64,000 bases of DNA from Alphaproteobacteria bacterium. GTDB lineage: Bacteria; Pseudomonadota; Alphaproteobacteria; UBA2966. Each line of letters opens with the position of its first letter. Within the stretch, counting starts at the first letter, position 1. A model generated the notes under the pieces. The model was not told the origin of the DNA and searched no databases. It saw only the letters and a program-made list of their open reading frames with translations. This document shows, piece by piece, positions 21,204 through 41,151 of this stretch. The position numbers were made by a program, and so were the translations under genes. The stretch is taken from assembly GCA_018654745.1 (NCBI GenBank), contig JABILA010000085.1:74191-138190 (forward strand), read 5' to 3'.

Positions 21204-21217
21204 TTGTATACTATAAT
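21204..21217. promoter_or_regulatory. TTGTATAC motif immediately followed by TATAAT in a divergent promoter region
   Basis: Reads tTTGTATACTATAATgg. The same TTGTATAC core recurs at 26095, 41144, 37898, 41081 and 1274. Confidence 0.4.
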
Positions 21218-21369
21218 GGCTGAAAGGAATTTGTCGCGAAAGCACTAATACCAGGAAATATTTTATTCCAATCTACCCTTCAGACAATCGACACCCCGCA
21301 ATTCGAATGCTAGCCTTGCCCCGGTACAGTTGACGATAGGCAAATCCAACCCTGCTTGAGGTAATTCTC

Positions 21370-22455
21370 GTGGACAGCAAGTCAATCGCATTCCTGGAAG
21401 TCATGATTGCCCTTGGCGTCATAGGTATTCTGGCGTTTCTGGTATACCTGATTTCCCGTTTTGCCATGCACAACCGTGCCAAAACAGCGGTTGGAAAGAC
21501 CGTTGGCTACACCCCGCAGTGGTATGAATTCCTGTTGGCGGCGATCATAGTTGTCGTCGCAGCCATCTTGTTCCTCTGGCAGTTTCCACCCGGTGGGCGC
21601 GCAGACTGGGGTGAAGATTCACGTTCGATGACGTTCTTTGTCATTATGATGATCATTTGTGCCGTCGGCATTATTGTATTCCTTCTGACCGTCTTCTGGC
21701 GCATCGCCCAGACCCCGAAGGAAGCGCCAGCAGAAATCCTGACCGCCTCTGCTACCCCTTCGCCAGCACCGGCAGAGGAAACCGGGCCCGTCAAAGCCCG
21801 ACACGAATCACCCTCAGCCGTCAGATTGCTGGGTCTTCTGGGCTTTGTTGTCGCCTTTCTGGTTCTGAACTGGACCTGGGTCTCCTACGCTGATCAGTAT
21901 TTCCTGATGTTGAATCTGGTCTATCCGGCCGGCCTGGTCGTGGCCCTGGTGATGTTGTTTGACAAGGCCAACAGGGCCTGGAATGTCAAATTGCCGGGTG
22001 AGACGATCCGCGAATGGTTTTTCCTGGATGCAATACTGTTTCTTTATATCCTGGCGTATCTGAACCTGAGGCAGGCAGGCGGTGGTGAAAATTACACTGC
22101 CCAGTTCTGGGATGTCGTTAATGTTGTCGGCTTTTTGTTTGTCTTCTGGATCATTGATCGCAAGACCACCAGCCTCAGGTTTCTGGTCACACACATATAC
22201 TTCCTGGCCCTGCCGATCTTATTGCTGATCTGGCGTTCGGTTCAAGGCGTCGAAATCGCCGCAGATATTTCCTGGTGGAGTACGATCTGGCCGTTTTTTG
22301 CCCTGGCTGCCGTCTTCCTGGTGCTGGAATTCATTATTCTGATAATCAATCGTGAAAGTGATAATCAGACGGTCGGCACGGTCAAGGACGTCATATTCCT
22401 TATACTTTATGTGATTTTATTACTGGCGGCCCGGCCGGAAGTTGCAGCTTCATGA
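21370..22455 (+). CDS. Polytopic integral membrane protein of unknown function (about 9 TM segments)
   Basis: GTG start with a GAGGT RBS; ATG at 21403 is an alternative. Highly hydrophobic. Its stop overlaps the amidase ATG (ATGA). Confidence 0.55.
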   Translation: MDSKSIAFLEVMIALGVIGILAFLVYLISRFAMHNRAKTAVGKTVGYTPQWYEFLLAAIIVVVAAILFLWQFPPGGRADWGEDSRSMTFFVIMMIICAVGIIVFLLTVFWRIAQTPKEAPAEILTASATPSPAPAEETGPVKARHESPSAVRLLGLLGFVVAFLVLNWTWVSYADQYFLMLNLVYPAGLVVALVMLFDKANRAWNVKLPGETIREWFFLDAILFLYILAYLNLRQAGGGENYTAQFWDVVNVVGFLFVFWIIDRKTTSLRFLVTHIYFLALPILLLIWRSVQGVEIAADISWWSTIWPFFALAAVFLVLEFIILIINRESDNQTVGTVKDVIFLILYVILLLAARPEVAAS

Positions 22456-23864
22456 CAGATCTGGCACGCCTTGGCATTGCCGAACTGGGCGATCTGATCG
22501 CAAAAGGTGAAGCCTCACCTGTTGAAGTGATGCAGTCGACGCTGGCCAGGATCGACCGCCTTGATGGCGGATTAAACGCATTTCTGTCGATCTATCCTGA
22601 CCAGGCACTGGCGGCAGCGGCAAAAGCCGAAAAGGAACTCGCAAATGGTCAGTCTCGTGGGCCTTTGCATGGGGTCCCGCTTGGCATCAAGGATTTGTTT
22701 GAAGTCGAAGGCATGACCCGAACCTGTGGATCAAACCTGATCCAGGAACCGCCAGCAGAAAAAGACGCCACCAGCGTCGCCCGTCTGAAAGATGCCGGTG
22801 CGATTGTGGTTGGTCTTTTGAACCTCAATGAATTCGCCTATGGCCCGACCGGAATCAATATTCATAAAGGCTCCGCCCGCAACCCCTGGGATCGGAGCAA
22901 AACCTGTGGTGGATCAAGTGCCGGTGCTGGATGCGCTGTTGCCGCCGAACTGGTGCCAGGTGCCATGGGCACGGATACGGGTGGCTCGATCCGCATTCCG
23001 GCCTCGGTTTGTGGTGTGGTCGGATTAAAGCAAACCTTTGGCCTCGCCAGTCGACACGGTATTTATCCATTATGTGACAGTTTTGATCATGGCGGTCCCC
23101 TGACCCGCACCGTGCGTGATGCGGCCTTGATGTTACAGGCGTTCGCCGGTGAAGATTTGCATGACTTTACGACACGCGGCGCACGTACAGACAACTATTC
23201 GGCCCGGCTTGGTCAATCTATCAAGGGCCTCAAGGTTGGTGTCCCCACATCATTTTTCTTCGACGATGTACATGCAGACACGGTAGCCGCCGTGCGCGCC
23301 GCGATTCAGGTTTTCAGTGATCTCGGCGCGGACGTTCAGGAAGTGGACGTGCCATTTGGTCAGGATGCTGTCGACAGCTGGAATACCATGGCCATGGCAG
23401 AAGCCTTTGTTGTCCATGAAGACCATATGGCCACCAACAAATATGACCTGGCACCGGATGTCAGCAGCCGTCTTGAGCTTGGCCGTAACATCAGCGCCCG
23501 GGATTATCTGGCATCGCGGGAACATCAAACCCGGGTCAAACAGGAAATGCAGGCCTTTATGGCGGACTATGATGTGCTTGCCATGCCAACTTCACCGATT
23601 CCGGCGATTTCGATTGAGACTGGCACAGCAAACCTGAACGGACGGGAAGTTGATGGCGCACCAATTATGGGGCGGCTGACACGAATGGCTGTGTTTACCG
23701 GCCAACCGGCGATCAGTGTACCTTGCGGGTTTACGAACGAGGGTTTGCCCATTGGCTTGCAACTAATGGGGCACTGGTTTGACGAGGCCGCTTTGCTGGG
23801 GGCTGCCGATGCCTATGAACAGGCAACAAGTTGGCACACGATGGTGCCACCGGAGATTAATTGA
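22452..23864 (+). CDS. Amidase signature (AS) family amidase
   Basis: Carries GGSSAGAGCAVAAELVPGAMGTDTGGSIRIPAS, the AS signature with the Ser-cisSer-Lys triad context. Confidence 0.85.
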   Translation: MTDLARLGIAELGDLIAKGEASPVEVMQSTLARIDRLDGGLNAFLSIYPDQALAAAAKAEKELANGQSRGPLHGVPLGIKDLFEVEGMTRTCGSNLIQEPPAEKDATSVARLKDAGAIVVGLLNLNEFAYGPTGINIHKGSARNPWDRSKTCGGSSAGAGCAVAAELVPGAMGTDTGGSIRIPASVCGVVGLKQTFGLASRHGIYPLCDSFDHGGPLTRTVRDAALMLQAFAGEDLHDFTTRGARTDNYSARLGQSIKGLKVGVPTSFFFDDVHADTVAAVRAAIQVFSDLGADVQEVDVPFGQDAVDSWNTMAMAEAFVVHEDHMATNKYDLAPDVSSRLELGRNISARDYLASREHQTRVKQEMQAFMADYDVLAMPTSPIPAISIETGTANLNGREVDGAPIMGRLTRMAVFTGQPAISVPCGFTNEGLPIGLQLMGHWFDEAALLGAADAYEQATSWHTMVPPEIN

Positions 23865-23953
23865 TCACACGACCTGGTTGCCTGAATATGGAAGCCTGGG
23901 ATAGGATTTATGAAAATGTGTACGAAAAACGGATTTTGCAGGGGGATAAGTGA

Positions 23954-24433
23954 ATGAGTGGCTGGCAATGGTTTTGGACCCTGGTGGGTTTCATTGTTTA
24001 TATTATCGTTCTGATTTTCCTGTATTTCTACGAGCCCTTCAAAGACCTGTTCAATCTGGTTGTCTATGGCCTCAGCTATAGCAATGCCATCTTCTGGGCG
24101 GGTGTAATAATCGGCATTGTCGGATTTTGCACTTTCCACTGGCGCGCCTACCGGCTGCACATCGTCAAACAAAAAAGCGTTGAATCGATGGTCCTGAGTT
24201 CCCTGCGCGGATCAACTTTTGTGGCCATTTTGCTCAGTGCCAGTGCTGCATTGCAGGCCGTACAAATGCTGTGTGTGCATCTGTTGCAACCCGGCTACGC
24301 CATCGATGCCGCCTTTGGCAAACGCCTGACCGCGGTACTCGCCTTGCTGATCCTGACCGGTTTGTTCTGCATCCTGTTCTGGCTGTTGAAAATCATGCGG
24401 TCACCCAAAACGTCGGTACCTTCAACGGTTTGA
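23954..24433 (+). CDS. Small 4-TM membrane protein of unknown function (paralog of 38139-38663)
   Basis: 159 aa with a CAGGGGGA RBS. It shares LIFLYFYxPF, IFW..V.GI, HW and ALQAV.ML..HL blocks with the second copy. Confidence 0.6.
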   Translation: MSGWQWFWTLVGFIVYIIVLIFLYFYEPFKDLFNLVVYGLSYSNAIFWAGVIIGIVGFCTFHWRAYRLHIVKQKSVESMVLSSLRGSTFVAILLSASAALQAVQMLCVHLLQPGYAIDAAFGKRLTAVLALLILTGLFCILFWLLKIMRSPKTSVPSTV

Positions 24434-24460
24434 TTGGAACCTGAGAAATCAAAACACGTC

Positions 24461-24558
24461 GTCACTCCGGGCTTGACCCGGAGTCTCTGTAGCCTATCCA
24501 GTGAAACTTGGGCCTGATTTCAAACGCCGTTGAGACTCCGGGTCAAGCCCGGAGTGAC
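24461..24558. repeat. REP/MITE-like element, copy 1: 27-bp arms GTCACTCCGGGCTTGACCCGGAGTCTC in inverted orientation around a 44-nt spacer
   Basis: Arms at 24461-24487 and 24532-24558. Each arm is itself hairpin-forming (CCGGG...CCCGG). An identical-arm copy lies at 43193-43291. Both sit between convergent gene ends. Confidence 0.7.
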
Positions 24559-24607
24559 GGAGGGTTAAGAGGATACTTTCGTCGTTACAAGCGCAGACCG
24601 TTTACGT

Positions 24608-26059
24608 TTACCCGCCGTTTCGCGAACCCGGGGCCCGTGACGGGATATCGCCGGAACGGCCTGGCGTGTACATGCCGCCATAGGCGCCGCGCTTGACGAA
24701 GTTGCCATCGCCCTTTTGGCCCAGATACTGACCCTTGTCGATGATCATGCGACCTCGGCTGAAGACGGTTTCGGTGAAGCCTTTCACCGGCATGCCTTCA
24801 TAAGCGTTGTAATCGATGTTCATGTGATGGGTATGACCGTTGTAATAGCTGATGATCTCTTCGCGTTCAGGATCGAAGATCACGATGTCGGCGTCACTAC
24901 CCACAGCAATGGTGCCCTTTTTCGGGAACAGGCCAAAGATTTTGGCGGGTGAGGTTGATGTCAGTTCGACAAAACGGTTGATGTCCAGGTATCCCCCGTT
25001 GACGCCATAGTGATAGATCAGGCTCATACGGTTTTCGATGCCGGGGCCGCCATTGGGGATCTTGCTGAAGTCGCTTTTGCCCAGTTCCTTCTGTTCTTTC
25101 ATGCAGAATGGGCAATGATCCGTTGAAATGGCGTTCAGGGCATTGCCGCGCAATCCGCGCCACAGTTCTTCCTGGTTCCACTTTTCCCTGAGCGGCGGTG
25201 TCAGCACATATTTAGCGCCCTCAAAACCTGGCTCATCATATTTGTCGACATCCAGCAGCAGGTATTGCGGGCAGGTTTCAGCATGGGCCATGACGCCACG
25301 GGCCTGGGCCATGCGCAGCTCCTGCAGCGAGTCATAGCTGCTAAGGTGTACAATGTAGACCGGCGACTTCGCCACTTCGGCAATTGCCAATGCACGGTGA
25401 ACGCCCTCTGCTTCGAGGCGTGTGGGCCTGGTCAGGGCATGATATTTGGGTTCAATGTGGCCTTCCGACAGGGCGATCTTGATCAGCTCATCGATCACAA
25501 CACCATTTTCCGCGTGCATGCAAATCAGCGTACCGTCTTCGCCAGCCTGGCGCATGGCCCGGAATATTGTGCCGTCATCAGACATCATGGCCCCTGGATA
25601 GGCCATAAACATTTTGTAACTTGTGACCCCTTCGTCCGCCAGCGCCCGCATTTCCTTTGTGCGCGTTTCCGGCATATCTGTCAGGATCATATGGAAGGCA
25701 TAATCAATCGCTGTTTCCCCGGCAGCCTTGGCATGCCACGTTTCCAGGGCTTCCAGAGACGACTGCCCCTTCATCTGAACGGCGAAATCAATGATGCAAG
25801 TGGTGCCTCCGAATGCGGCGGCACGTGTGCCTGTTTCGAACGTATCCGACGTGGTTGTTCCACCAAAGGGAAGCTCGAGATGCGTGTGCGGATCGATACC
25901 GCCAGGGATCACCAGCTTGCCTGCGGCATCAACCACAACATCGGCTTCCAGTTGCAGATTTTTGCCAATCAGGTCAATCGTGTCGTCATTGACATAGATA
26001 TCTGCGTGATAGTCGTCTGTTGCCGTTACGATCCGGCCATTCTTGATTAATACGCTCAC
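24608..26059 (-). CDS. D-hydantoinase / dihydropyrimidinase (cyclic amidohydrolase)
   Basis: 483 aa from a GTG start with a GGGGAGG RBS. Starts MSVLIKNGRIV...GGIDPHTHL and has a carboxylated-Lys region. It has a C-terminal Gly/Pro-rich tail of about 25 aa. The longer ORF to 27061 is an artefact. Confidence 0.85.
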   Translation of the reverse strand: MSVLIKNGRIVTATDDYHADIYVNDDTIDLIGKNLQLEADVVVDAAGKLVIPGGIDPHTHLELPFGGTTTSDTFETGTRAAAFGGTTCIIDFAVQMKGQSSLEALETWHAKAAGETAIDYAFHMILTDMPETRTKEMRALADEGVTSYKMFMAYPGAMMSDDGTIFRAMRQAGEDGTLICMHAENGVVIDELIKIALSEGHIEPKYHALTRPTRLEAEGVHRALAIAEVAKSPVYIVHLSSYDSLQELRMAQARGVMAHAETCPQYLLLDVDKYDEPGFEGAKYVLTPPLREKWNQEELWRGLRGNALNAISTDHCPFCMKEQKELGKSDFSKIPNGGPGIENRMSLIYHYGVNGGYLDINRFVELTSTSPAKIFGLFPKKGTIAVGSDADIVIFDPEREEIISYYNGHTHHMNIDYNAYEGMPVKGFTETVFSRGRMIIDKGQYLGQKGDGNFVKRGAYGGMYTPGRSGDIPSRAPGSRNGG

Positions 26060-26089
26060 AAAATGCCTCCCCTGATCAATCTGGTTTGC

Positions 26090-26102
26090 TATAATTGTAT
26101 AC
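26090..26102. promoter_or_regulatory. TATAAT-TTGTATAC motif, followed by a TTGTAT repeat, in the divergent promoter between the D-hydantoinase and the ABC transporter
   Basis: Reads gcTATAATTGTATACTGTTGTATca. Confidence 0.4.
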
Positions 26103-26236
26103 TGTTGTATCATCTTGCACACTACGTGATCACAGAAATCATTAATTGGCCTTTGAGAATGACCAGGTAATAGTTTGAGATCGTGTTCATTCGCGTTAAG
26201 GCCGGAAAAATAACAATCGCTCCAGGGAGAACGAAG

Positions 26237-27508
26237 ATGGCCAAAGACAAGAAGAAGACTAGTAGCAAAGTATCGCGTCGCCAGTTTGTTGGCGGTGCCG
26301 CAGGCGCAGTCGCCGCAAGCTCGGTAGTCGGATTTCCGGCAATCGTCTCGGCAGCCGACCCTATTCGCGCCATTGGTCTGGGCGTGAGTATCATCAATGA
26401 AATTCAAAGCCGTGCCGCCAAGGATATTGGCTTTGGTATTCGGGGCCAGGCGCTTGGTTATGGTGCCCTGTTCGGCAAGACTTTGAACCAGAACGACCAG
26501 TATGAAGTGTCGGAATGCTATTTCGACATGTTCGACGCAATGGTGCCGTCCAAGGTATTCCAGCCCATTGATACCAAGCGTATCCGTGACTGGGACAAGG
26601 TCTCGAACCTTGTTAAAACCGGCAAGCTGACACCAGGTTCGCAAATCGGTCAGGGCGATGCACCTGTTACCAAGTTGTGGGTCGACAAGGACGGTAATCC
26701 AACCGATGGTCCGTCGCAATATATCTCGGCTGTTCCAGCTGCGCATAATGCGGACTCGCTGGGCTATAACCCGGACGACACCGGCCGCGCGATTGAAAGC
26801 TGGGCCGAACTCTACAGCCCGGATTTCAAAGGCAAGGTTGCGCTTATCAATGTGCCTCAGGTTGGTGTGATGGATGCTGCCATGGGCATGGAAGCGTTGG
26901 GTCTGGCGAAATTCGGCGACAAGGGTGACATGACCCGCGCTGAAATCGACACCTTGATCGAGTTCCTGATCGTCAAGAAAAAGGAAGGCCACTTCCGCGC
27001 TTTCTGGGAAACCTTCGGCCAGTCCGTGAACCTGATGGTATCCGGTGAAGTCGCCCTGCAAAGCATGTGGTCACCGGCGGTGACGGCTGTAAATGCTGAA
27101 GGTGTTAAGTGCGTCTATGCTTCACCAAAAGAAGGCATGCGTGGCTGGCATGGTGCATTGGCAATTTCCGCCAAGGCATCCGGCAAAAAGCTTGATCAGG
27201 CTTATGAATATATCAACTGGTGGCTGGATGGCTGGGCCGGTGCCTTTGTGGCGCGTCAGGGCTACTATTTCTCGACGCCGGCAAATACCAAAAAGCACCT
27301 GCCAAAAGCAGACTGGGATTTCTGGTATGAAGGCAAGCCTGCTGCCATGGAACTCAATGATCCGTTTGGCTCTCCATTGGTCGAAAAAGGCGCTGTCCGT
27401 GACGGTGGCTCCTATGAACAGCGCTTCAAGAACATCGCTGTCTGGAACTCGATCATGAAAGAAAATGATTATCTGGTGAAACGCTGGACCGAGTTTCTCG
27501 GCTCCTGA
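26237..27508 (+). CDS. ABC transporter periplasmic substrate-binding protein (PotD/PotF-like family) with a Tat signal
   Basis: GGGAGA RBS. Twin-arginine motif SRRQFVGGAAGA, followed by an SBP family-1 fold. Confidence 0.75.
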   Translation: MAKDKKKTSSKVSRRQFVGGAAGAVAASSVVGFPAIVSAADPIRAIGLGVSIINEIQSRAAKDIGFGIRGQALGYGALFGKTLNQNDQYEVSECYFDMFDAMVPSKVFQPIDTKRIRDWDKVSNLVKTGKLTPGSQIGQGDAPVTKLWVDKDGNPTDGPSQYISAVPAAHNADSLGYNPDDTGRAIESWAELYSPDFKGKVALINVPQVGVMDAAMGMEALGLAKFGDKGDMTRAEIDTLIEFLIVKKKEGHFRAFWETFGQSVNLMVSGEVALQSMWSPAVTAVNAEGVKCVYASPKEGMRGWHGALAISAKASGKKLDQAYEYINWWLDGWAGAFVARQGYYFSTPANTKKHLPKADWDFWYEGKPAAMELNDPFGSPLVEKGAVRDGGSYEQRFKNIAVWNSIMKENDYLVKRWTEFLGS

Positions 27509-27664
27509 TAACCGACGTTCCCAAAGCGGAGCGCAGTTGCGACAAGACTGGAGCCGGTGTGGCCTTTGCCGCACCGGCCCCTTTTTCGTCAGGACTGAAT
27601 TATTACGATCAATGTAGAGCGAAGCGGTCTGGACAGGACCCTGGGGAAGCACGAAAATACGGAC

Positions 27665-28645
27665 ATGACTGAGGCAGGCCAAACACATCACCCGGGGCTG
27701 ATCGGCGAACAACCTGTGCCCGACGAAAGTGCCGTGCGGGAAAAAATTATCCGGCCCGTGGAAGGTTTTGCGACGGGCTGGTTGATCGCACCGGCCGCGA
27801 TTTGGTTGTTTCTGATTTTGATCGTGCCCCTGGCCGCCATTATTGTTTTCAGCTTTTTCGAATCAACAGCCCATGGCATGGTCTTCGATCTGACGGTCCA
27901 TTCCTATGCGGAATTTTTCCTCACGGAAGGGTTTTTTGACTCTGAGTCAAATAGTTTCCTGAAGATCAGTGTTTTTATCAAGACGCTGGGATCAACCATA
28001 TATTTCACGTTGTTGACGATGCTGTTTTGTCTGATCGTCGGCTACCCCATTGCCTATTTCCTGGCCATGCAAGTTCAGGAATTCAAATGGCAACTGGCTC
28101 TGTTCCTGCTGTGCATGGTGCCTTTCTGGACAAGTTATCTGATCCGCGCTGTCGCCTGGCTGCCCATGCTGGGGCGTCGGGGCCTGATCAACCAGGCCTT
28201 GCTGGGTATGGGGATTGTCGACAAACCCGTCAGCTTTTTGTTCTATTCCGAATTTGGCTACATGTTGGCCCTTGTACAAATTTATGTGGTGCTGGGCATT
28301 GGTCCGATTTTCTTCTCGCTGGCCAAAATCGACAAGGCCATCCTGGAAGCCGCCATCGACATGGGGGCAACGCCGTTCCAGATATTCCGCGAGATCATCG
28401 GCCCCATGTCCTTGCCCGGTGTGGCTATTGGCATGATCTTCATTTTTGTGATGATCATGGGCGAGTTTGCCACTGCCGTTGTGGTTTATGGCGGCAAGAC
28501 CAGTACCACCGGCACGGTCATCCTGAATTACTACGGCATCGCAAACTATCCCTTTGCGGCGGTAAATGCCTTGATGCTTATGGTGGCGATGATCATCGGG
28601 ATCGTCATCATCCTGCGCGTCGTCGATATCCGGAAGGAACTGTAA
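27665..28645 (+). CDS. ABC transporter permease (PotB-like)
   Basis: 6-TM BPD transporter permease with the EAA loop (LEAAIDMGATPFQIFREI). Confidence 0.8.
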   Translation: MTEAGQTHHPGLIGEQPVPDESAVREKIIRPVEGFATGWLIAPAAIWLFLILIVPLAAIIVFSFFESTAHGMVFDLTVHSYAEFFLTEGFFDSESNSFLKISVFIKTLGSTIYFTLLTMLFCLIVGYPIAYFLAMQVQEFKWQLALFLLCMVPFWTSYLIRAVAWLPMLGRRGLINQALLGMGIVDKPVSFLFYSEFGYMLALVQIYVVLGIGPIFFSLAKIDKAILEAAIDMGATPFQIFREIIGPMSLPGVAIGMIFIFVMIMGEFATAVVVYGGKTSTTGTVILNYYGIANYPFAAVNALMLMVAMIIGIVIILRVVDIRKEL

Positions 28646-28646
28646 A

Positions 28647-29474
28647 TTGGCTCGCTGGACACCAGAACGAAAACGAAAGCTGCGGGTCAAATCCGGCTTT
28701 AGTTTATATTACATCGTCTTCCTGATTTTCATTTATGGTCCCATGATCGCCATGTTCATCCTGTCGTTTCAGGGACGTCGCGGTGGCACCAGTTTTCCCA
28801 TGCGCGGCTGGAGCCTTCATTGGTGGAAAAAACTGTTTGAACCGTCCCTGGTCGGTGACATGCAAGGCGCCATGGGCCGGTCGATCATCCTGGCGATTAT
28901 GGTGATGATCGTCATCGCCCTGTTTTCGACCATGCTGGCCATGGCCTTTCGCAAGAAGTTCCGCTTTTCCAATGTGCTTTTTTACACCATCCTGGCAGGC
29001 CTGATGGTGCCGGGCGTCTTGCTCAGCCTTGGTCTGGCGATGGTCTTACGCCAGTTAGGCATTTCACCGAGTTGGTACACATCCGCCTTTGCCGTGCACG
29101 TGGTCTGGGCCCTGCCCTTCGGGTTCCTCGTGATGATGGCGGTGTTTAACCGCTTTGATTCCAGTCTAGAGGAGGCGGCCCGCGATATGGGGGCCAGTGA
29201 ATGGGTCGTGTTCAAGGAGGTGACCCTGCCCCTGATCACGCCGGGCATTGTCGCCGCCGGTTTGTTCGGCTTCACTTTGTCCTACGATGAATTTGCCCGA
29301 ACGACCTTGCTGTCCGGCGAGTTCAATACCTTGCCGCTGGATATTAACGCCTCGATGACCCAGCGCATCCGACCGACCCTGTTTGCGCTTGGCACGGTGT
29401 CGACCCTGTTCTCACTGGTCATGATCGGATTGTTCCTGGGGATTTACACGATCCTGTACCGAAGATCGCATTAA
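28647..29474 (+). CDS. ABC transporter permease (PotC-like)
   Basis: TTG start 2 nt after the upstream stop, with a GGAAGGA RBS. EAA loop (LEEAARDMGASEWVVFKEV). Confidence 0.8.
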   Translation: MARWTPERKRKLRVKSGFSLYYIVFLIFIYGPMIAMFILSFQGRRGGTSFPMRGWSLHWWKKLFEPSLVGDMQGAMGRSIILAIMVMIVIALFSTMLAMAFRKKFRFSNVLFYTILAGLMVPGVLLSLGLAMVLRQLGISPSWYTSAFAVHVVWALPFGFLVMMAVFNRFDSSLEEAARDMGASEWVVFKEVTLPLITPGIVAAGLFGFTLSYDEFARTTLLSGEFNTLPLDINASMTQRIRPTLFALGTVSTLFSLVMIGLFLGIYTILYRRSH

Positions 29475-30593: not shown

Positions 30594-33407
30594 TTAATCA
30601 GCTGCCTTCGCAGTCGCCTGGAGGAGCGACCAGACCGTCTCAAATGGCAGGTCATTAAACGCACCACCTTCATTGGCATTTTTCAGCAAGCCAAGCGCCT
30701 GCGTCTGAGCCTCATTATTTCCGGCCTTGTTCTCCAGGACCTTGAGAGCATCGGAGAAGGGAATCTCGCGCTTCTTTTTGGTGCCAAAATTATCACGCAC
30801 CAGATCAGACAGTTGTTCCGCCATCTCGCGGAATTCACCGCCACGACCAGGCTTGCCCCAAATGCCGCGAATGCCGTTGCTGGCAAAGCGCTGTTTCAGG
30901 CCTTCTGGCAGGGATTGGGCGACACCTTCCAGAACTTCACCAAGGGAGAAGCCTGAGGTGAACATGTCGCGGATGGTGTCAACGGTTCCGTCACCGCCGC
31001 CATACATCCGGATCTGGGCCTGGCTTAGGGCGTTACCCATGGCTTTGGCCTGATCAATATGCACATCACGTTCTGCTTCGATTTGCAGTTTGGAGAGTTC
31101 AAGGAAAGCGGCAGCGTCATTATATTTCTTGAGCGCTTCGGCCTTGGCTTCCATGCCATTTGCCTCGGCTTCCAACATACGCTGGGTATTGTTGACGCGT
31201 AGTTCCTCGATCTCGGCTTCGGCCCGACCGCGTGCCGCGGCTTCCTGGGTAATGCCATCGGCCGAGATGACCTGGGCTTCGCTGTTGGCCTTGGCCCGGA
31301 TCAGCGTTGCATCAGATTCTTCGGACGCTGACTTTTTACGGGCAGAGGCCTGACTGATCATATGCATGGAATTCACCGCTGCATCAGCTTCCTCGGCAAT
31401 GGTTTTGGTTTCCGCGGCCTGTTCAGCAGAAATCCGTTCCACTTCTTTCGACTGTTCGGCATCCGCAACCACACGGGCAGTCTCAACACCTTTTTCTGCT
31501 TTGGCTTTTTCAGCTGTGGTCTTCAGACGTTTGACTTCAGCATCTTCCAGTTCACGGGTCTTGTTAACGAGGACGATTTCACGATCACGCTCTTCCTTTT
31601 CACGGGCGAGGAAGCGCAGTATGTCAGCTTTTTCGCGTTCCTGCTCCTTGGCGATGATCTTGATTTCATCTTCCTTGGTTGCCAAGGCCTGGGCCGTGCG
31701 TGATACGCGGGCCGCTGCGTAATATTCGCCTTCCTTGTTGACCAGGGCGATTTCGCGATCCTTTTCCTCGGCTTCACGAGCCAGCTGGCGGCGAATTTCA
31801 GCGCGCTCCAGTTCTTCGGCTTTGCCAACAAGGGCAATATCACGATCCCGCTCTTCAGCTTCACGAGCCAATGAACGACGGATTTCGGCGGCTTCGCGGG
31901 CCTTGCTTTCGTCGATGACAGTTGCGTCGCGCTTTATCCGGGCCTGTTCGATGGTCAGCTCAGTGGCGATTTCTTCCTGCTCTACCTCCAGACGGCGTTC
32001 AAGAATAATGCGCTGCTTCTCGCTCAGGACACGCGCCTTCTCTTCGGCGATCTGCTTTTCCTGTTCGGCAACAGCGAGGGCTTCGTCCTTGTCAATATTC
32101 AGCACATTCAGCTTCGTATCCAGGGCCCGTTTGCGCATGGTCAAAGATGTGGCTTCCGTCACTTTGTGACGGGCATCCCGCGCAGCTTCTTCGGCTTTCA
32201 TGACCTCAGTTGTCTGGGCGATGTCTGCTTCCTGGCGTTCACGCTCCTTGGCAGATAACTGGATTGCCCTGTCTTTTTCAGCCGCTTCACGAGCCAGCGA
32301 GCGATCAATTTCGGCCAACTCATTTTGTTTGGCCTTTTCGACCAGGGCGATCTGGCGATCTTTTTCTGCCTGTTCCAGCGCCAGGTTACGCTCGATATTC
32401 GAGAGCTCTTCTTCCTTGGCTTTGCCGATCAGGGCGATTTCCTTGTCGCGGCGTTCTTTCTCCAGAGTCAAAGTGCGGTCAATTTCCGACAGCTCACGTT
32501 TCTTGGCTTCTTCGGTAATCGCGACTTCACGGTCTGTGCGCTGACGCTCCAGTTCAACTTCGTTGGAGATTTCGCGTTCTTCGACAGCCTTGCGCTGGTC
32601 CAGCATATAGACTTGCTTCTGACCCAGTTGCAGTGCCTGTTCGTTGGAAATGTCCTTGTCCTGACTGGCGTTCGCGAAGGCTTCTTTTCTTTCGATCTCC
32701 AGCAGTTCCAGCTGTGTATCGAGATCCTTCTGGCGAATGGCAACAGTTGTGCGCTTTTCGGTTTCGTGCACCTTGCGCTTGGCGTTGGAGGTAATCTCGG
32801 TGATGATCTTCAAACCTTCAGCATCAAAGATGTTGTTGGAATTGAAGTATTCCTTACCGGCCTGTTCCAGGGTCACAATGGTAACTTCTTCCAACAGCAA
32901 ACCGTTGACCTGGAAACTCGCAATAACGTTTTCCTTGACGGCCTGGGCAAACTCTTCGCGGTTCTCATGCAATTCGCTCAGGGTCTTGGTCGCGGCATAA
33001 CTGCGCAGGGCACTTACAACCTTGGCTTCCAGCAAGTTGCGAACTTTTTCAGCATCGAAGGTTTTGTCACCCAGACTGCGACTGGCGGTCAGCAGGTCAT
33101 CTTCCGTGCGCCCGACATGGGCATACAGTTCTGTGACAATATCAATCCTGATTTTGTCCGACGTCAAAACGGCCTGCTCGCGTGAGCGGCTGACGATCAG
33201 CTTGATGGTTTCCAGGGAAATCCACGATACCTCGTGGAAAACAGGCAGGACTATCGCACCACGCCCCAGGCACACCTTGGTGCCCAGAAAACCGGTTCGG
33301 ATAAAGCCCATGTTGGCTGGCGCTCTTTTGTACACCCAGATCGAGATGACATAAAGAATGGCCAGGACAACAATTGCCGAGAAGAAAGTTCCAATCCAAA
33401 GTTCCAT
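30594..33407 (-). CDS. Flotillin-like SPFH/Band-7 protein (YqiK family) with a greatly expanded coiled-coil repeat region (937 aa)
   Basis: N-terminal TM helix plus an SPFH domain (GFIRTGFLGTKVCLGRGAIVLPVFHEV...). It has at least six 29-31-aa repeats of consensus AEI-R-LAREAEEKDR-IALV-KA-E, and a YqiK-like C-terminus. Confidence 0.75.
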   Translation of the reverse strand: MELWIGTFFSAIVVLAILYVISIWVYKRAPANMGFIRTGFLGTKVCLGRGAIVLPVFHEVSWISLETIKLIVSRSREQAVLTSDKIRIDIVTELYAHVGRTEDDLLTASRSLGDKTFDAEKVRNLLEAKVVSALRSYAATKTLSELHENREEFAQAVKENVIASFQVNGLLLEEVTIVTLEQAGKEYFNSNNIFDAEGLKIITEITSNAKRKVHETEKRTTVAIRQKDLDTQLELLEIERKEAFANASQDKDISNEQALQLGQKQVYMLDQRKAVEEREISNEVELERQRTDREVAITEEAKKRELSEIDRTLTLEKERRDKEIALIGKAKEEELSNIERNLALEQAEKDRQIALVEKAKQNELAEIDRSLAREAAEKDRAIQLSAKERERQEADIAQTTEVMKAEEAARDARHKVTEATSLTMRKRALDTKLNVLNIDKDEALAVAEQEKQIAEEKARVLSEKQRIILERRLEVEQEEIATELTIEQARIKRDATVIDESKAREAAEIRRSLAREAEERDRDIALVGKAEELERAEIRRQLAREAEEKDREIALVNKEGEYYAAARVSRTAQALATKEDEIKIIAKEQEREKADILRFLAREKEERDREIVLVNKTRELEDAEVKRLKTTAEKAKAEKGVETARVVADAEQSKEVERISAEQAAETKTIAEEADAAVNSMHMISQASARKKSASEESDATLIRAKANSEAQVISADGITQEAAARGRAEAEIEELRVNNTQRMLEAEANGMEAKAEALKKYNDAAAFLELSKLQIEAERDVHIDQAKAMGNALSQAQIRMYGGGDGTVDTIRDMFTSGFSLGEVLEGVAQSLPEGLKQRFASNGIRGIWGKPGRGGEFREMAEQLSDLVRDNFGTKKKREIPFSDALKVLENKAGNNEAQTQALGLLKNANEGGAFNDLPFETVWSLLQATAKAAD
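31538..32498 (-). repeat. In-frame tandem repeat region, about 90-nt period, encoding the flotillin coiled-coil repeats
   Basis: Protein residues about 304-624 show repeated ELSEIDRTL / LAREAAEKDR / IALVxKA blocks. The corresponding DNA shows repeated gcgatttc...cttgtcgcg-type segments. Confidence 0.5.
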
Positions 33408-35743: not shown

Positions 35744-35745
35744 AT

Positions 35746-37845
35746 CTAGTTCTGCCCCGCCGCTGATTGACCCGCAACTGATTGTGTCACCAAAGCCTGC
35801 CCTTCGGGATGGATCAGGATATTCAGATATTCATCGACATCACCGGCATAACCCGGATGGATGACACAGGTCGAATCTTTTTGAACCACAATGGCCGGGC
35901 CTGAGATATGGTTTCCGGCCTCCAGCTTGTTGCGGTCGTAAACGCCGGTGTTCACAAAGCTGCCGTCAAAATACACCTGGTCCTGACGCAACAAGGCGGA
36001 AGACGCATCGGGTCCGGCTTTTTCAAACTTTGGAAACGCAACCTTGTCCACCTGGCCTGTACCGATCACACGCAAATTGACGATCTCAACCGGTTGATCA
36101 AGTTTGAAGCCATATTGGCGTTCATGGGCGGCACCAAAATCGGCGGCCAGACCAGCAAGACCTGATCCTTGCAGCTTTTCCGGATCGACATCCAGGCTGA
36201 ATTCATAACCCTGACGGAAATAGCGCACATCAGCCTGATAGCGCACTTCACGTCCGGTCTGGCCCAGGCCTTCTTCCTGCAGCCAGGCGTTGGCTTCGGC
36301 CCCTAGGCCGTTCAGAATATCGACGACCTCGGACACTTCTATATCGTCGATGGTCCGGGCAAAGGTACGGGCAAATTCGTTTTTGATATCGGAATACAGG
36401 AAACCCAGCGCCGATAATACGCCAGGCGTTGGCGGCACAATGACCGGGAAACAACCAGCCAGAATACCCATGGCGTTGCCATGCAAAGGCCCGGCACCAC
36501 CAAAAGCCACCAGCGCAAAGTCCCGTGGATCAAGGCCTTTTTGCACAGAGACCAGACGCAAGGCACCAAACATGTTTTCGTTGACGATATTAAGAATGCC
36601 TTCCGCCGTCTGGTGCAAATCAAGCCCCAGCGCACCGCCCAGTTTAGAGACGGCATCCTTGGCGGCCTGAACATCCAGGGACATGCTGCCGCCCAACAGG
36701 CTGGGAGGCAGGCGACCCAGAACAACGTTGGCATCCGTAACAGTTGGCGCATCACCGCCATGGCCGTAACAAGCCGGTCCAGGCCGGGCACCAGCGCTGT
36801 CGGGACCCACGCGCAAGGCACCGGTCATCGGTACATGGGCAATGGAGCCACCGCCTGCACCGACGGAATGAACTTCGACAGACGGCACCTTGATCGGATA
36901 GTAACCCAGCTGGGTTTGACGCGACAAATTGGGCGTTCCGTTCTGGATCATCGACACATCGGTTGAGGTGCCGCCCATATCGAAACCCAGGGCGTTTGGA
37001 TACCCGGCCAATGTGGCCAGGTAAGCGGCACCGGATACACCACCGGCGGGGCCGGACAACATGGTATGAACCGGAGATTCGGTTGCCCGTGCAACACTCA
37101 TCAAGCCGCCGTCGGAACGGACAATATTAACCTTGGGACTGAACTGGATACCGCGCAGTTTTTCTTCGAAGCCTTTCAGATAGCGCCCCATGCTGGGTCG
37201 CACATAGGCGTTCATCACTGTCACCAGTGTGCGCTCATATTCACGGAACTCCGGCAGCAATTCTGACGACAGGGAAATGGGAATATTGGCATCCATTTCC
37301 TGGATCATGGCCTTGAGGCGTTTTTCGTGTGACGGGTCCGCATAGGAATGCATCAATGAGATGGTAATCGACTCGACACCTGAATCCAGGAGCTCACGGA
37401 TACTCTCACGGGCCAGGGTCTCTTCCATGGGGGTGATGATATCGCCGCGCGCAGAAATGCGTTCCTGTATGCCGCGGGTAAATTCCAGATCCGCCAGCGG
37501 GTCCGGCTTTATCATGATCATCCAGCCAGCCAGAGGGCCGGGCGTCTGTGATCGTGCCAGATGCAGGACTTGCTCAAATCCTTCGGAGACCAGTAAACCA
37601 ACCCTGGCACCTTTTTCCTCGAGCACGATATTTGTAGATACTGTGGTGCCATGCAGCAGGGCTTCGATGCTCGACGGCGACACGCCGGTTTCACGCACCA
37701 ATTCTTCAATACCATTGTGAATGCCGACGGATTGGTCAGCCGGAGTCGAGGGCGTCTTTAACAGATGCATGGCACCTGTTTCGCCGTCAAATAGCAGGAG
37801 ATCGGTAAACGTCCCCCCTACATCAATGCCAAGTCGACTTGACAT
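35746..37845 (-). CDS. hyuA: Hydantoinase A/oxoprolinase family protein, copy 2
   Basis: 699 aa starting MSSRLGIDVGGTFTDLLLF. GGAGG RBS. Confidence 0.85.
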   Translation of the reverse strand: MSSRLGIDVGGTFTDLLLFDGETGAMHLLKTPSTPADQSVGIHNGIEELVRETGVSPSSIEALLHGTTVSTNIVLEEKGARVGLLVSEGFEQVLHLARSQTPGPLAGWMIMIKPDPLADLEFTRGIQERISARGDIITPMEETLARESIRELLDSGVESITISLMHSYADPSHEKRLKAMIQEMDANIPISLSSELLPEFREYERTLVTVMNAYVRPSMGRYLKGFEEKLRGIQFSPKVNIVRSDGGLMSVARATESPVHTMLSGPAGGVSGAAYLATLAGYPNALGFDMGGTSTDVSMIQNGTPNLSRQTQLGYYPIKVPSVEVHSVGAGGGSIAHVPMTGALRVGPDSAGARPGPACYGHGGDAPTVTDANVVLGRLPPSLLGGSMSLDVQAAKDAVSKLGGALGLDLHQTAEGILNIVNENMFGALRLVSVQKGLDPRDFALVAFGGAGPLHGNAMGILAGCFPVIVPPTPGVLSALGFLYSDIKNEFARTFARTIDDIEVSEVVDILNGLGAEANAWLQEEGLGQTGREVRYQADVRYFRQGYEFSLDVDPEKLQGSGLAGLAADFGAAHERQYGFKLDQPVEIVNLRVIGTGQVDKVAFPKFEKAGPDASSALLRQDQVYFDGSFVNTGVYDRNKLEAGNHISGPAIVVQKDSTCVIHPGYAGDVDEYLNILIHPEGQALVTQSVAGQSAAGQN

Positions 37846-38138
37846 TGCACCTCCCTGTTTTTCAGCCTCGTTAAGACTTGATGGCCAAATACGTCAAACC
37901 CCGAAAATGTATACAACATTTACAGGGTTATTATTCAGCCCCTACCCCGGATACTTGATTGTAGCCTTATTATCGTCGATTGGGCCCTTGTATGATTCTC
38001 TAACCAGCGTCCCGGGTCAACGCCCGAATAGACTTTGTATGCAAAATAACCACATCAGTTTGACAGAAACGCAATTACATGTACCATTCGGCCAGTGAGG
38101 TACGCCCACATCTCGAACTTCAATGGATAATAAGAACG

Positions 38139-38663
38139 ATGTCAGATGAAATAGCAGATCGCCGTCGGCCCCGTTTCTGGATTGGCCTGCTCGCCTTCAT
38201 TATTCTGCTGATATTTCTGTACTTCTATACGCCGTTTGAGACGTTGGTGAAGGACAGTATTCCAAATATCCATTTCAACAATGTAATCTTCTGGTTTGCC
38301 TCGGTCGTGGGCATCATTGCCTATGCCGTGTCGCACTGGCAGTCCTTCCGCAACAATCTCTCCAGCCATGTTTCTGATCTGAACGTGCCGGTCCTGGTCT
38401 TCGATACCCTGCAGGTTTCGATCCTGATCGCCGTGATCTTCTGCGCCGGTGCAACCTTGCAGGCGGTAGCCATGCTGGCGGAACATCTCATGAGCAGTGC
38501 GCCGATTATTGGCTCAGGGCTTGGTGAAAACCTGTTGGCGATTGTGTTGCTGGTGGTGATGGCGGTGTTGTTCTACCTGCTGCACCATGTCGTCCGCGCC
38601 TTCCGCGACGGCTGGCAAACACGCAGGCCACCCCGGTTTGGATCATCTTCGTCTGACGGCTGA
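38139..38663 (+). CDS. Small 4-TM membrane protein of unknown function (paralog of 23954-24433)
   Basis: The start was chosen by alignment with its paralog (MSDEIADRRRPRFWIGLLAFIILLIFLYFYTPFE). It is divergent from hyuA-2. Confidence 0.55.
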   Translation: MSDEIADRRRPRFWIGLLAFIILLIFLYFYTPFETLVKDSIPNIHFNNVIFWFASVVGIIAYAVSHWQSFRNNLSSHVSDLNVPVLVFDTLQVSILIAVIFCAGATLQAVAMLAEHLMSSAPIIGSGLGENLLAIVLLVVMAVLFYLLHHVVRAFRDGWQTRRPPRFGSSSSDG

Positions 38664-38666
38664 TAA

Positions 38667-39722
38667 TCAGGCGGATAGCTGCTGAATATCCGAATTCGCA
38701 AGGCCGTTGAAGGCCGCCAGTGAGGCTTCAATCCGGGCCTGATCCATATCGCGCACTATAAAGACCAGCCTTGATCTCTTGTCTTCATCCGGCCAGTTTT
38801 CGAGATGCACCGGTGGGTGCACGACATGCTGCACACCGTTGATCAGCACCGGCGTGCCAACCCCCAGTACATTTAGCATCCCTTTGATTCTTAACACTTT
38901 ATCGCCGTAATGATTGAGCAACATGGTCATCCAGATGCCATAGGCTGTCCAGTCCAGGGGGGCATCAAAAGTCAGGGCAAAGGACGTGACACCGGAGGTA
39001 TGAAGGTGATCGCCCGCGTTATCATGATCATGCCCCGCATGTGAGGCGGTCGTTGCCGTCGACATCAGGTGGTTGATTTCCTGGCGCTTGCCTTTTGGGT
39101 CATGAATATCTTCCGTGATCAAACGCCGGGGACCAAGATCATCAACGGCTGCATCAAATAAAGGTGCCGAAATATTCAGGCGCTGCAGGGCGAGGCGCAA
39201 GGCTGCCGTGTCGCCCGGGTCCGCAATATCCGTTTTGGTGATAATCAGGCGGTCGGCAACAGCGACTTGTTTAACAGGCTCTTCAAATTCCGCCAGCTGT
39301 TTCAAGCCGTTGACGGCATCGACCGTAGTGATCACATTGCCAAGGCGGAAATGATGCTGCAACACAGGTTCCGCCAATACCGTATAGGCGATAGGCACGG
39401 GGTCAGCGAGACCGGATGTTTCGATAATCACGCGTTTAAAAGCCGGTATTTCACCGCGTTCCCGACGGTCGAACAAATCCCGCAAACTGTCCTTGAGATC
39501 ACCGCGAATGGCACAGCAGATACAGCCATTGTCCATCAACAAAGTGCTCTCGGTGGCGGTCTCCAGCAGGTGATGATCGAGACCAACTTCGCCAAATTCA
39601 TTGACCAGCACCGCCGTGTCATCGAGCAAAGGCGAATGTAATAACTGCTGCAGCAAGGTCGTTTTACCGCTGCCGAGGAAGCCGGTCACGACATTGACGG
39701 GAATGAAAGAATTGTATGCCAT
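38667..39722 (-). CDS. COG0523 (CobW/ZigA/Zng1-like) G3E-family GTPase metallochaperone
   Basis: P-loop GFLGSGKTT and the GCICC metal-binding motif. It has a C-terminal CobW_C-like domain with His-rich stretches (HAGHDHDNAGDHLH). Confidence 0.8.
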   Translation of the reverse strand: MAYNSFIPVNVVTGFLGSGKTTLLQQLLHSPLLDDTAVLVNEFGEVGLDHHLLETATESTLLMDNGCICCAIRGDLKDSLRDLFDRRERGEIPAFKRVIIETSGLADPVPIAYTVLAEPVLQHHFRLGNVITTVDAVNGLKQLAEFEEPVKQVAVADRLIITKTDIADPGDTAALRLALQRLNISAPLFDAAVDDLGPRRLITEDIHDPKGKRQEINHLMSTATTASHAGHDHDNAGDHLHTSGVTSFALTFDAPLDWTAYGIWMTMLLNHYGDKVLRIKGMLNVLGVGTPVLINGVQHVVHPPVHLENWPDEDKRSRLVFIVRDMDQARIEASLAAFNGLANSDIQQLSA

Positions 39723-40046
39723 CTAGTCCGCCGTCAGGTCGGCAATCAAGTCATCAGCCAGCGGATCAAAGGACCGCCCGGTCAGGGTTTCCGCCTGGGC
39801 CCACATTTGCGCCAGATTATCGACAATGGCCGTTTTGCCGGTATTGCCCTTGAGGATATAGGCATTGCCTGACCAATCCTTGAGGCCGAGACCATAATGC
39901 CCAAGAACGCGGTTAACGATGCGGGTGCGTTGCTGGCGTTCCCGAAGGGATGTCCCCGGATCTGATTGTGCGGCAAAGGCATCCGGGTTTGTTGACTGGT
40001 CCGTCCAGTGACCCCGCCCGCCAAGGACACCACACAGGCCACACAT
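39723..40046 (-). CDS. Hypothetical small protein (107 aa) beginning MCGLCG, translationally coupled to the COG0523 GTPase
   Basis: Its stop abuts the GTPase ATG, and its ATG lies 6 nt after the deacetylase stop. No family recognised. Confidence 0.45.
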   Translation of the reverse strand: MCGLCGVLGGRGHWTDQSTNPDAFAAQSDPGTSLRERQQRTRIVNRVLGHYGLGLKDWSGNAYILKGNTGKTAIVDNLAQMWAQAETLTGRSFDPLADDLIADLTAD

Positions 40047-40051
40047 ATCCG

Positions 40052-41065
40052 TTACCTCGGGTTTCGGGCGGCAAAGTCATCGGCAATTTCATCAAATGTG
40101 CAGAACCGCACACCCGTATGGGCGCTGATATGATCAAAGACCCGTTGCAGCATCATCTGAACCTGCGGTCGCCCGGACACATCCGGATGGATCGTCAAGG
40201 TGAAGACAGCATAATCATATTCGTTATAAACCCAGTCGAACTGATCAATCCACAATTGTTCGATATCGCGCGGATTAACAAAACCATGACTGTTTGGAGC
40301 GCCCTTGATGAACATCATCGGTGGCAAATCATCGAGATACCAGCTGCCGGGAATATCAATCAGATCCGTTTCCTGACCACGAACCAGCGGTTTCATCCAT
40401 TCGTCCGGGTGCTTGGAATAATCGATCTTGGTCCAGCTGTCGCCAACGCGCGCATAAAACGGGTGGAAGTCGTCGTTCATCAAACTGTGGTCGTACTTGA
40501 TGCCCTTGGCCAACAACAGTTCGTTGGTAATGGGACTGAATTCCCACCACGGCGCTACATAGCCGGTGGGTCGCCTGCCGGAAACCTCTTCAATCAGCTC
40601 GATACATTTGTCCATCACCGCTTCTTCCTGAACCGGTGTCATGGCGATGGGATTTTCATGACTGTAGCCATGCATGCCAATTTCATGTCCGGCATCAACC
40701 ACCATCTGGGTTTCTTTCGGAAAAGTCTCGATGGAGTGGCCGGGGATAAACCAGGTGGTGGGGATTTGCCATTTGTCGAACAAGCGCACCAAACGCGGCA
40801 CCCCCACTTCACCGGCAAACAAACCACGGGAAATATCACAAGGCGAATCTTCGCCACCGTATGACCCCAACCAACCGGCAACAGCATCCACATCAACACC
40901 CACGGCACAAAGGATTTCCTTGCGTCCGCCACTGGCCGCAGACCGGCTGGCGATGGAACTGGAGGCTGAGCTGGAAGAAAAGGCCGGGCGAGGCTGATAT
41001 CGCCCACCTGACACACCGCCGCGAATACCCTGTGTTGGTCGACCAGACCCGGAACTGTCACTCAT
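40052..41065 (-). CDS. Polysaccharide deacetylase (CE4) family protein, PuuE/allantoinase-like, with an N-terminal Ser/Gly-rich disordered segment of about 50 aa
   Basis: Catalytic region ...[13 protein letters not shown]...[13 protein letters not shown]...HPDVSGRP. The N-terminus reads [47 protein letters not shown]. Confidence 0.75.
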
Positions 41066-41143
41066 CCCAAAAAATCCCCCTGTATACTTTGTTGTGATTA
41101 TTTTTAATCCTGGCCTTGTTATTCTGCAATCAGATCATGTTTA

Positions 41144-41151
41144 TTGTATAC
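41144..41151. promoter_or_regulatory. TTGTATAC motif (aTTGTATACTAagg) in the divergent promoter between the deacetylase and the isochorismatase copy 2
   Basis: Same 10-nt core, TTGTATACTA, as at 21204. A further GTATAC lies at 41081-41087. Confidence 0.4.

Follow-up and report, generated by a model that had tools for sequence, protein, structure and literature searches.

In the firmicute Bacillus subtilis, the gnt operon for gluconate catabolism is controlled by GntR, an FCD-type repressor that acts at its own operon through an operator reading ...TTGTATACAA..., in which the word TTGTATAC is found. For the GntR family as a whole, operators obey the rule NyGTNxACNy, which becomes GTM-N0-1-KAC in the FadR subfamily and GTMTAKAC in the HutC subfamily (PMC4494728). 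In Agrobacterium fabrum, Atu1419, a repressor of the FCD/VanR group, binds the 10-bp palindrome ATGTATACAT, in which the only base-specific contacts, G3 with Arg45 and A5 with Thr46, fall inside GTATAC and the flanks are held by phosphate contacts only (PMC7797058). Its operators overlap the -10 box or sit between -10 and -35, degenerate copies matching at 8 of 10 positions are also bound, several sites lie 60-190 bp apart within a region, and the protein acts as a looping tetramer that represses its own operon and neighbouring catabolic genes (PMC7797058). Here we describe a motif with the same TTGTATAC word in a 64,000-nucleotide (nt) stretch of contig JABILA010000085.1 from an alphaproteobacterium of the lineage UBA2966 (the window, by which we mean the whole stretch analysed). 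The motif recurs in the spacers between divergent operons of a catabolic island, and one candidate for the protein that reads it, a GntR/FCD regulator that we call GntR2, is encoded just to the left of the window.

GTATAC sites between divergent operons

The copies of the motif, designated sites F, A, B, C, D and E, share one invariant 6-bp palindrome, GTATAC, with 2 nt between GT and AC. As a sequence, this core fits the FadR/FCD rule with N0 and does not fit the HutC rule. We predict that the sites are very likely functional protein-binding sites, and that the protein binding them is probably a GntR regulator of the FadR/FCD type.

The octamer TTGTATAC occurs four times in the window, at 21204, 26095 and 41144 on the plus strand and at 37909 on the minus strand. 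The first-pass annotation had counted four copies, which is correct, with the qualification that one of them is on the opposite strand, but its chance expectation of about two octamers per 64 kb was too high: dinucleotide-preserving shuffles gave a mean of 0.66, and four or more copies appeared in 1 of 100 shuffles. The heptamer TGTATAC gives seven matches at six positions (1275, 21205, 26096, 37908 on both strands, 41081 and 41145) against a shuffle mean of 1.76, with none of 100 shuffles reaching seven, so the recurrence that had been claimed is borne out for both words. Every one of these matches lies in a divergent intergenic region, as had also been reported, and shuffling the intergenic DNA alone gave 0.2. 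A literature search with the raw sequence TTGTATACAA returned mostly Gateway att sites, and in the GntR papers matched, TGTATAC occurred only within primers.

These counts need to be read with caution, because the motif was picked post hoc. Of 400 shuffles, 139 contained a non-trivial 7-mer that reached at least five spacers, and 69 contained an 8-mer that reached at least four. Once motif choice is corrected for, recurrence within the window is without significance, as 17-35% of shuffles match it; the count is suggestive but not proof, its lack of significance being a point against a regulatory reading, and for this reason the enrichment was not taken as proof of function. The same numbers favour the explanation that the motif recurs by chance in AT-rich spacers or is a functionless relic of duplicated promoter DNA. 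The island does contain paralogous operons, and a 24-nt box with the core AATTCGAATG is common to the spacers of sites A and E (21300 and 41184). However, this box lies apart from the motif sites, in a promoter spacer, and a repeat search around the sites found flanks without mutual similarity, which argues against duplication of spacer DNA as their source.

The sites themselves are as follows. Site F (1272-1297) consists of two overlapping 14-bp boxes, TAATGTATACGTTA at 1272-1285 and TAATTCATACATTA at 1284-1297, and lies between the Iso_dh-MocA-GntR2 operon, which is on the minus strand and runs past the left edge of the window, and a PALP/creatinase-like operon on the plus strand. The palindrome at 1270-1298 had been regarded as merely related to the motif; it is indeed related, but more than that, since it carries TGTATAC at 1275 and forms the boxes of the GntR2-operon promoter.

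Site A is a conserved block, ATTTGTATACTATAATG, at 21202-21218 with the core TTGTATAC at 21204-21211. Its spacer (IG-A) separates isochorismatase-1/hyuA1/hyuB1 on the minus strand from a membrane protein/amidase/small membrane protein operon on the plus strand. The site overlaps the -10/+1 region of the predicted minus-strand isochorismatase-1/hyuA1/hyuB1 promoter, GCGACA-16-TATAGT, and adjoins a plus-strand TATAAT. Site B (TTGTATAC at 26095-26102) is located in the 16-nt spacer of the plus-strand ABC-transporter promoter, 36 nt from the opposite-strand start codon of a D-hydantoinase-like amidohydrolase gene, the transporter and the amidohydrolase being the two sides of IG-B. TATAAT hexamers had been noted beside sites A and B, and both are present, at 21212 and 26090.

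In IG-C, which divides hyuA2/hyuB2/SPFH protein/ABC ATPase from a paralogous small membrane protein, site C (AAAATGTATACAACA, 37904-37918) contains the perfect 8-bp palindrome TGTATACA at 37908-37915, not at 37898 as first recorded, a position off by 10; the other positions recorded for the motif are right. The hyuA2-hyuB2-SPFH-ATPase operon is predicted to carry it in its 5' leader, ~75 nt past a conserved promoter. The last spacer, IG-DE, lies between polysaccharide deacetylase/unk107/CobW and isochorismatase-2, and holds two sites 63 bp apart. Site D (41081-41087) is a TGTATAC that adjoins the Shine-Dalgarno sequence of the deacetylase gene. Site E is the conserved block GTTTATTGTATACTA at 41139-41153 with the core TTGTATAC at 41144-41151, and overlaps two -10-like hexamers, TACAAT on the minus strand (deacetylase-unk107-CobW, TTCAAA-17-TACAAT) and TATACT on the plus strand (isochorismatase-2). 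The gene labels given earlier to these divergent operons agree with our Pfam assignments.

Sites A, B and E are identical over the 9-mer TTGTATACT. Flanks are A/T-rich at sites F, A, B, C and E, whereas the left flank of site D is C-rich (CCCCC). A near-site, TTGTATGCAA at 38035-38044, is flanked by the -35 boxes of two divergent promoters, those of hyuA2 and of the membrane paralogue, and reads as the perfect palindrome TTGCATGCAA in two related loci (L082 and L152). Its membership in the motif family is uncertain; it is possibly a separate, older element, perhaps an activator site that is conserved in its own right, apart from the GTATAC motif.

One further TTGTATAC was observed ~9.3 kb past the right-hand end of the window, on an overlapping contig (L161:21017-21024), in a divergent spacer between an Asp-dehydrogenase/heterotetrameric sarcosine oxidase (soxBDAG-like) operon and an acetyltransferase gene. 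Judged by this sequence match, the regulon may reach further than the island, as the copy hints.

The island extends over ~20 kb (20399-42041) and is present in at least 160 genome or metagenome loci with a strikingly conserved gene order, mostly in Alphaproteobacteria, with some Beta- and Gammaproteobacteria and SAR324. It comprises two ATP-dependent hydantoinase/oxoprolinase (HyuA/HyuB) pairs, the D-hydantoinase-like amidohydrolase and an amidase, an ABC transporter, small membrane paralogues, two isochorismatase-like hydrolases, a deacetylase with unk107 and a CobW chaperone, and the SPFH protein. This last, an SPFH/Band-7 protein of 937 amino acids (aa), contains at least five diverged, tandem-like repeats of 87 nt (29 aa) at 31567-32403, and in nearly all related loci gene order predicts its co-transcription with hyuA2/hyuB2 and the ABC ATPase. 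A creatininase gene (48819-49541), taken together with the HyuAB/isochorismatase pairs and the sarcosine oxidase operon, allows the speculation of a route from creatinine or N-methylhydantoin to sarcosine. Pairs of REP/BIME-like inverted repeats, ACTCCGGG...CCCGGAGT, were also seen at 24453-24566 and 43185-43300, both in convergent intergenic DNA, and their 8-mer occurs nine times in the window against 1.9 expected.

Conservation and promoter placement

Relatives of the island were retrieved through its central 937-aa protein, which gave 80 genome loci and 80 metagenome loci with the same island (L001-L160). The closest relative is one sister species (loci L047 and L081); its proteins match those of the window at about 90% amino-acid identity, with a range of 77-98%. 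The window island, L047 and L081 each carry 6-7 copies of GTATAC per ~22 kb, against 0-3 in each of the 158 other island copies; in the sister species TGTATAC is likewise present 6-7 times per ~22 kb, always in spacers. At orthologous promoters among the 160 related loci, the motif was found in none besides L047 and L081. The next relative, L083, whose island proteins are 84-95% identical, and all more distant ones have other sequence at the site positions. No alternative shared motif was found in the island spacers of the other genomes, where only the ribosome-binding site recurs.

Within the sister species, the motif stands out from its surroundings. When the window was compared with L047, the longest stretch of identity in the spacer of site A, 60% identical overall, was the 17-nt block ATTTGTATACTATAATG, and in that of site E, only 31% identical, it was GTTTATTGTATACTA (15 nt). 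In IG-C, which is 73% identical, AAAATGTATACAACA was the second-longest run (15 nt) after the core double promoter, and the box of site F forms a 16-nt identical run amid a diverged spacer. Site B is uninformative as a footprint, as the stretch around it is near-identical in the sister species anyway. Site D has no counterpart there, and its function is for that reason doubtful.

Phylogenetic footprinting had been named earlier as a check on the motif, and sites A, C, E and F come through it, being kept in diverged spacers of the sister species. Absence from orthologous promoters had been named as grounds for refutation; the absence is real beyond the closest relatives, but we take it as a sign of recent recruitment and not as a refutation. 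Because the motif is kept in the diverged spacers of the sister species and is missing in all more distant relatives, the alignments indicate that selection acts on it in this lineage, where it is a recent acquisition. In four spacers the motif is retained at precisely the point where the DNA on either side has diverged, which is hard to reconcile with chance recurrence or a functionless relic, an explanation that we regard as highly improbable.

We next consider where the sites lie relative to promoters, which are predictions from the consensus combined with alignment to distant relatives. The IG-B promoter, TTGCTA (26086-26091) and TATCAT (26108-26113) separated by 16 nt, is conserved across all relatives, and the window and L047/L081 are alone in having the motif between its two hexamers. 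IG-C contains back-to-back promoters, TTGACC-17-AATCAT for hyuA2 on the minus strand (TTGACC at 38020-38015, 17 nt, AATCAT at 37997-37992) and TTGACA-16-TACCAT on the plus strand, which are conserved in nearly all of seven aligned relatives; the leader segment that holds site C is missing from L082, L152, L001 and L010. In IG-A, both hexamers of the minus-strand promoter GCGACA-16-TATAGT are kept in L047, and the conserved membrane-operon promoter TCGACA-17-TAGCCT lies 80 nt beyond the motif of site A. A consensus scan put -10-like hexamers over sites A and E, located site B within a promoter spacer and detected no such promoter at sites C and F. From sequence, this layout, over or inside core promoters or as a roadblock in a leader, appears to be that of a repressor.

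The overlap with -10-like hexamers gives rise to another explanation, in which the motif is a lineage-specific, AT-rich, -10-like promoter sequence (TATACT/TACAAT/TATAGT) that is read by RNA polymerase and is no operator. The motif itself holds -10-like hexamers on both strands and touches the predicted -10 at A, B and E, a point against an operator, and relatives have similar -10 regions at the same promoters (TGTATCAT, TGTATGAT, TATGATAC). A direct promoter role is possible for sites A and E. However, the conserved promoter whose spacer holds site B has a -35 and a -10 of its own, site C is a perfect palindrome well downstream of a conserved promoter, and site F lies in a 14-bp palindrome conserved across six genomes. 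Moreover, the G and C of GTATAC, exact at every site, would not be required of a -10 box. On balance a purely promoter-based role of the motif seems improbable.

Several other elements were observed in the same spacers. The true start of isochorismatase-1 is 21046 (ATG after AGGGGAG) and not 21163, and its leader at 21068-21104 contains two palindromes 24 nt apart, CTGTGGTACCACAG (a perfect 14-bp palindrome of the FadR-like TGGT-ACCA type) and TGTGGCGCCACG, which, as sequences, could serve some additional regulator as paired operators. The box shared by the spacers of sites A and E reads CCGCAAT(AA)TTCGAATG(C/T)T at 21295-21313 and 41177-41197 and contains the 8-bp palindrome ATTCGAAT. The IG-A copy is the spacer of the membrane-operon promoter TCGACA-17-TAGCCT, and the copy near site E is a hint that promoter DNA has been duplicated or converted locally.

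Downstream of the ABC-transporter promoter lies GTGATCACAGAAATCATTAATTGG (26127-26150), which is kept as far as L001 and L003 and whose core palindrome AATCATTGATT is seen in L082; it is a candidate for an ancestral operator or leader element of the island. As a second candidate palindrome at site B, AATCATTGATT showed no enrichment in the window. With an RNA fold of -57.7 kcal/mol (z = -3.8), the isochorismatase-2 leader (41152-41312) is predicted to form three strong hairpins and has no Rfam match, nor did Rfam return an RNA family anywhere in the window. In the sister species the hairpin segment is wholly missing and the motif is ~30 nt from the start codon.

Candidate regulators

Three helix-turn-helix regulators are encoded in the window, a GntR/FCD protein at 11572, HutC at 58008 and an XRE-cupin protein at 54318. 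A search of the 80 genome loci for a regulator gene kept within the island or next to it found none, and the small conserved uncharacterised proteins of the island are membrane proteins or are without a helix-turn-helix signature. The region examined was extended by two contigs that overlap the window, L164 (window 1-13611, 99.99% identity) and L161 (window 52274-64000, 100%).

The regulator that we prefer is found on the first of these. GntR2 (L164:5944-6606, minus strand, 942-1604 nt to the left of window position 1) is a 220-aa protein with GntR and FCD domains (PF00392 and PF07729) and is the last gene of an operon that begins with Iso_dh (94-1215, minus strand; isocitrate/isopropylmalate-dehydrogenase family), followed by a MocA-type oxidoreductase. 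It retains Glu34, Ser44, Arg45 and Thr46 in the Atu1419 numbering (aligned ...E...SRTP...), and it is syntenic with the island in four species. The promoter of the (SGL)-Iso_dh-MocA-GntR2 operon carries the box TAATGTAT(A/G)C(A/G)TTA in the window as well as in L166, L169, L170, L171 and L173, whose proteins are 60-100% identical; the GntR2 orthologues of the four distant box-bearing genomes are 60-63% identical. Variants of the box include TTAATGTATACGTT in Pelagibius litoralis, ATAATGTATACATTAT, a perfect palindrome, in a Sneathiellales metagenome-assembled genome, and TAATGTATGCATTA and TAATGTATGCGTTA in two other genomes. In one GntR2 orthologue that has a different gene context no box was found; P0007 and P0009, intermediate GntR2 relatives, were compared by gene order. 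A box conserved at the promoters of the regulator's own operon is the standard signature of autoregulation, and site F is proposed, on this pattern, as the autoregulatory operator of GntR2.

The Sneathiellales genome has both GntR2 and the box (L170), yet its island (L001) is without GTATAC. Because of this, membership of the island in the GntR2 regulon would be lineage-specific.

We scored the window with a 14-bp weight matrix of the TAATGTATRCRTTA operator, built from out-of-window boxes only (L166, L169, L170, L171 and L173). The two halves of site F were the top two matches (F1, 23.4 bits; F2, 18.4 bits), and site C reached 11.4 bits, a score equal to that of the best coding-region match. 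Sites A, B and E were outside the top 25 and share only the 7-bp core with the GntR2 box, possibly being the sites of a paralogous regulator. These results count against GntR2 as the reader of the island, as do the following: the residues it retains are common to most GntR proteins; Atu1419 is only its fifth PDB match (E = 6e-11), with His in place of Arg49; and in distant genomes the GntR2 operon adjoins sugar-acid genes, not hydantoin genes. The assignment of A, B and E to GntR2 is tentative on this sequence evidence. If GntR2 needs the TAA/TTA flanks, A, B and E would belong to another protein; if it reads the core only, by analogy with Atu1419, they would be weaker GntR2 sites.

The first of these alternatives would have a different transcription factor, encoded beyond the ~84 kb examined and either another FCD/GntR paralogue or a member of some other family, bind the TTGTATACT-type sites A, B and E (with D and G), leaving GntR2 with the 1272 box alone and perhaps site C. 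The identity of A, B and E over TTGTATACT and their poor scores with the GntR2-operator matrix are in its favour, and so are the T that they carry before TGTATAC in place of the A of the GntR2 box and their lack of TAA/TTA flanks. Nevertheless, GTATAC is the palindrome at the heart of both classes of site, the two species that conserve one class also conserve the other, GntR2 keeps its synteny with the island, and in Atu1419 the flanks give phosphate contacts only. We consider a second transcription factor rather unlikely, and give an even chance to the reading in which the GTATAC sites are operators of a dimeric, possibly tetrameric, FadR/FCD GntR repressor that is most likely GntR2.

The two regulators that the first-pass annotation had put forward were both rejected, although its more general idea, one GntR-type regulator for the island, agrees with the shared site and with the GntR family of the operators. 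The first, GntR1 (11572-12288, plus strand; Pfam GntR and FCD), is attractive as an FCD-type GntR only 9 kb from site A. However, it belongs to a block of ~8 kb (7526-15937) that is absent in the sister species, which keeps the sites, and in two further relatives, and it has no orthologue in L166, L167, L081 and L047, where the sites persist. Its own upstream region is without TGTATAC, and in its recognition helix, GVGGSPMREAL, a Gly replaces the guanine-contacting Arg45 of FadR and Atu1419. Control of the island by GntR1 is hardly credible.

The block that contains GntR1 (SGL/cyclase/metallo-beta-lactamase/FAA hydrolase, then GntR-FCD/TRAP transporter/CMD) is found only in the species of the window and, from gene content, looks like an inserted module; in relatives without it, hyuB1 directly abuts an AstE-like gene. 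Upstream of GntR1 we observed TAATTGATTCGTTA (11409), with flanks as in the GntR2 box but no G/C core.

The second candidate was HutC, a GntR + UTRA protein of the hut operon (58008-58763, minus strand), or a HutC-like paralogue, acting on the island through TTGTATA half-sites. In Pseudomonas, the Phut consensus is TGTA-N2-TACA (PMC12977541), and GT-N4-AC is the spacing in the consensus of the HutC subfamily (PMC4494728, PMC12977541). The window has a classic hut locus (60122-60226 region, hutH-hutC-hutF versus hutI-hutG-hutU), where the start of hutF is probably 60121 and not 60178. Two copies of TTGTATAGACAA, of the GT-N4-AC type, 12 bp long and 38 bp apart, lie there at 60146-60157 (minus) and 60184-60195 (plus) as the HutC operators, and their first seven bases are those of the island motif. 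They share with the island sites a TTGTA(T) half-site, a GntR winged helix and a setting of nitrogen-compound catabolism, but their half-sites are 2 bp farther apart than in the island core. Pseudomonas HutC also has low-affinity, non-canonical targets (PMC12977541), which would leave some room for the idea. Against it, no island site has GT-N4-AC or a second half-site at the HutC spacing, position 10 is never C, and the conserved feature is an N2-spaced 6-bp palindrome of the FadR-subfamily type (PMC4494728). HutC-like control of the island is very unlikely.

A proposed switch and its relation to described systems

Taking GntR2 as the regulator, we propose the following. Effector-free GntR2 would bind its own double box at 1272-1297 and repress its own operon. 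In this lineage only, it would also bind minimal GTATAC sites inside pre-existing promoters of the neighbouring 20-kb island: at site A it would cover the -10/+1 of the isochorismatase-1/hyuAB-1 promoter, at site B it would occupy the -35/-10 spacer of the ABC-transporter promoter, at site E it would cover the -10-like hexamers of the deacetylase and isochorismatase-2 promoters, and at site C it would act as a roadblock in the hyuAB-2 leader. A small-molecule effector on the FCD domain would then free the DNA, and all the divergent operons would be switched on together. We infer the binding of GntR2 to A, B, C and E, the repression and the existence of an effector.

One possible interpretation, which we hold as conceivable without expecting it, is a recent capture of a regulon. 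An FCD repressor that ancestrally autoregulated a dehydrogenase/oxidoreductase operon would have been rewired to the island, and perhaps to the sarcosine oxidase operon, in one genus-level lineage, through de novo 6-8-bp GTATAC operators in pre-existing promoter spacers and leaders. If true, this would be a dated, sequence-resolved example of a whole island brought under one switch. It would suggest that minimal GntR operators arise fast in existing promoters, being present in two sister species and absent in the next relative at 84-95% identity. The mechanism itself, a GntR-type repressor with palindromic operators, is ordinary, and the added interest lies in its recent installation on a widely conserved island. 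If confirmed, the sites would also offer a handle on an uncharacterised cyclic-amide (hydantoin/N-methylhydantoin-like) island, and the effector of the repressor would point to its substrate or to a pathway intermediate.

Compared with described operators, the island sites resemble the general GntR rule in their A/T-rich flanks, conserved palindrome centre and variable periphery, but their GT-AC distance of 2 nt is shorter than the 3 nt of most FadR-subfamily sites (PMC4494728). Sites A, B and E are also asymmetric outside the core, unlike the FadR-subfamily rule. The comparison with Atu1419 is closer. GntR2 is not its orthologue, the pathway differs, and the GntR2 box is longer (14 bp, with TAA/TTA flanks). 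On the other hand, Atu1419 and the host of the window are both alphaproteobacterial, and ATGTATACAT shares an identical GTATAC core with the island sites. Identity to the 10-bp Atu1419 palindrome is 9/10 for site C and for site F (ATGTATACGT), and 8/10 for A, B and E, in which the match is asymmetric (TTGTATACT). Like Atu1419 operators, the island sites overlap a predicted -10 or fall between predicted -10 and -35 boxes.

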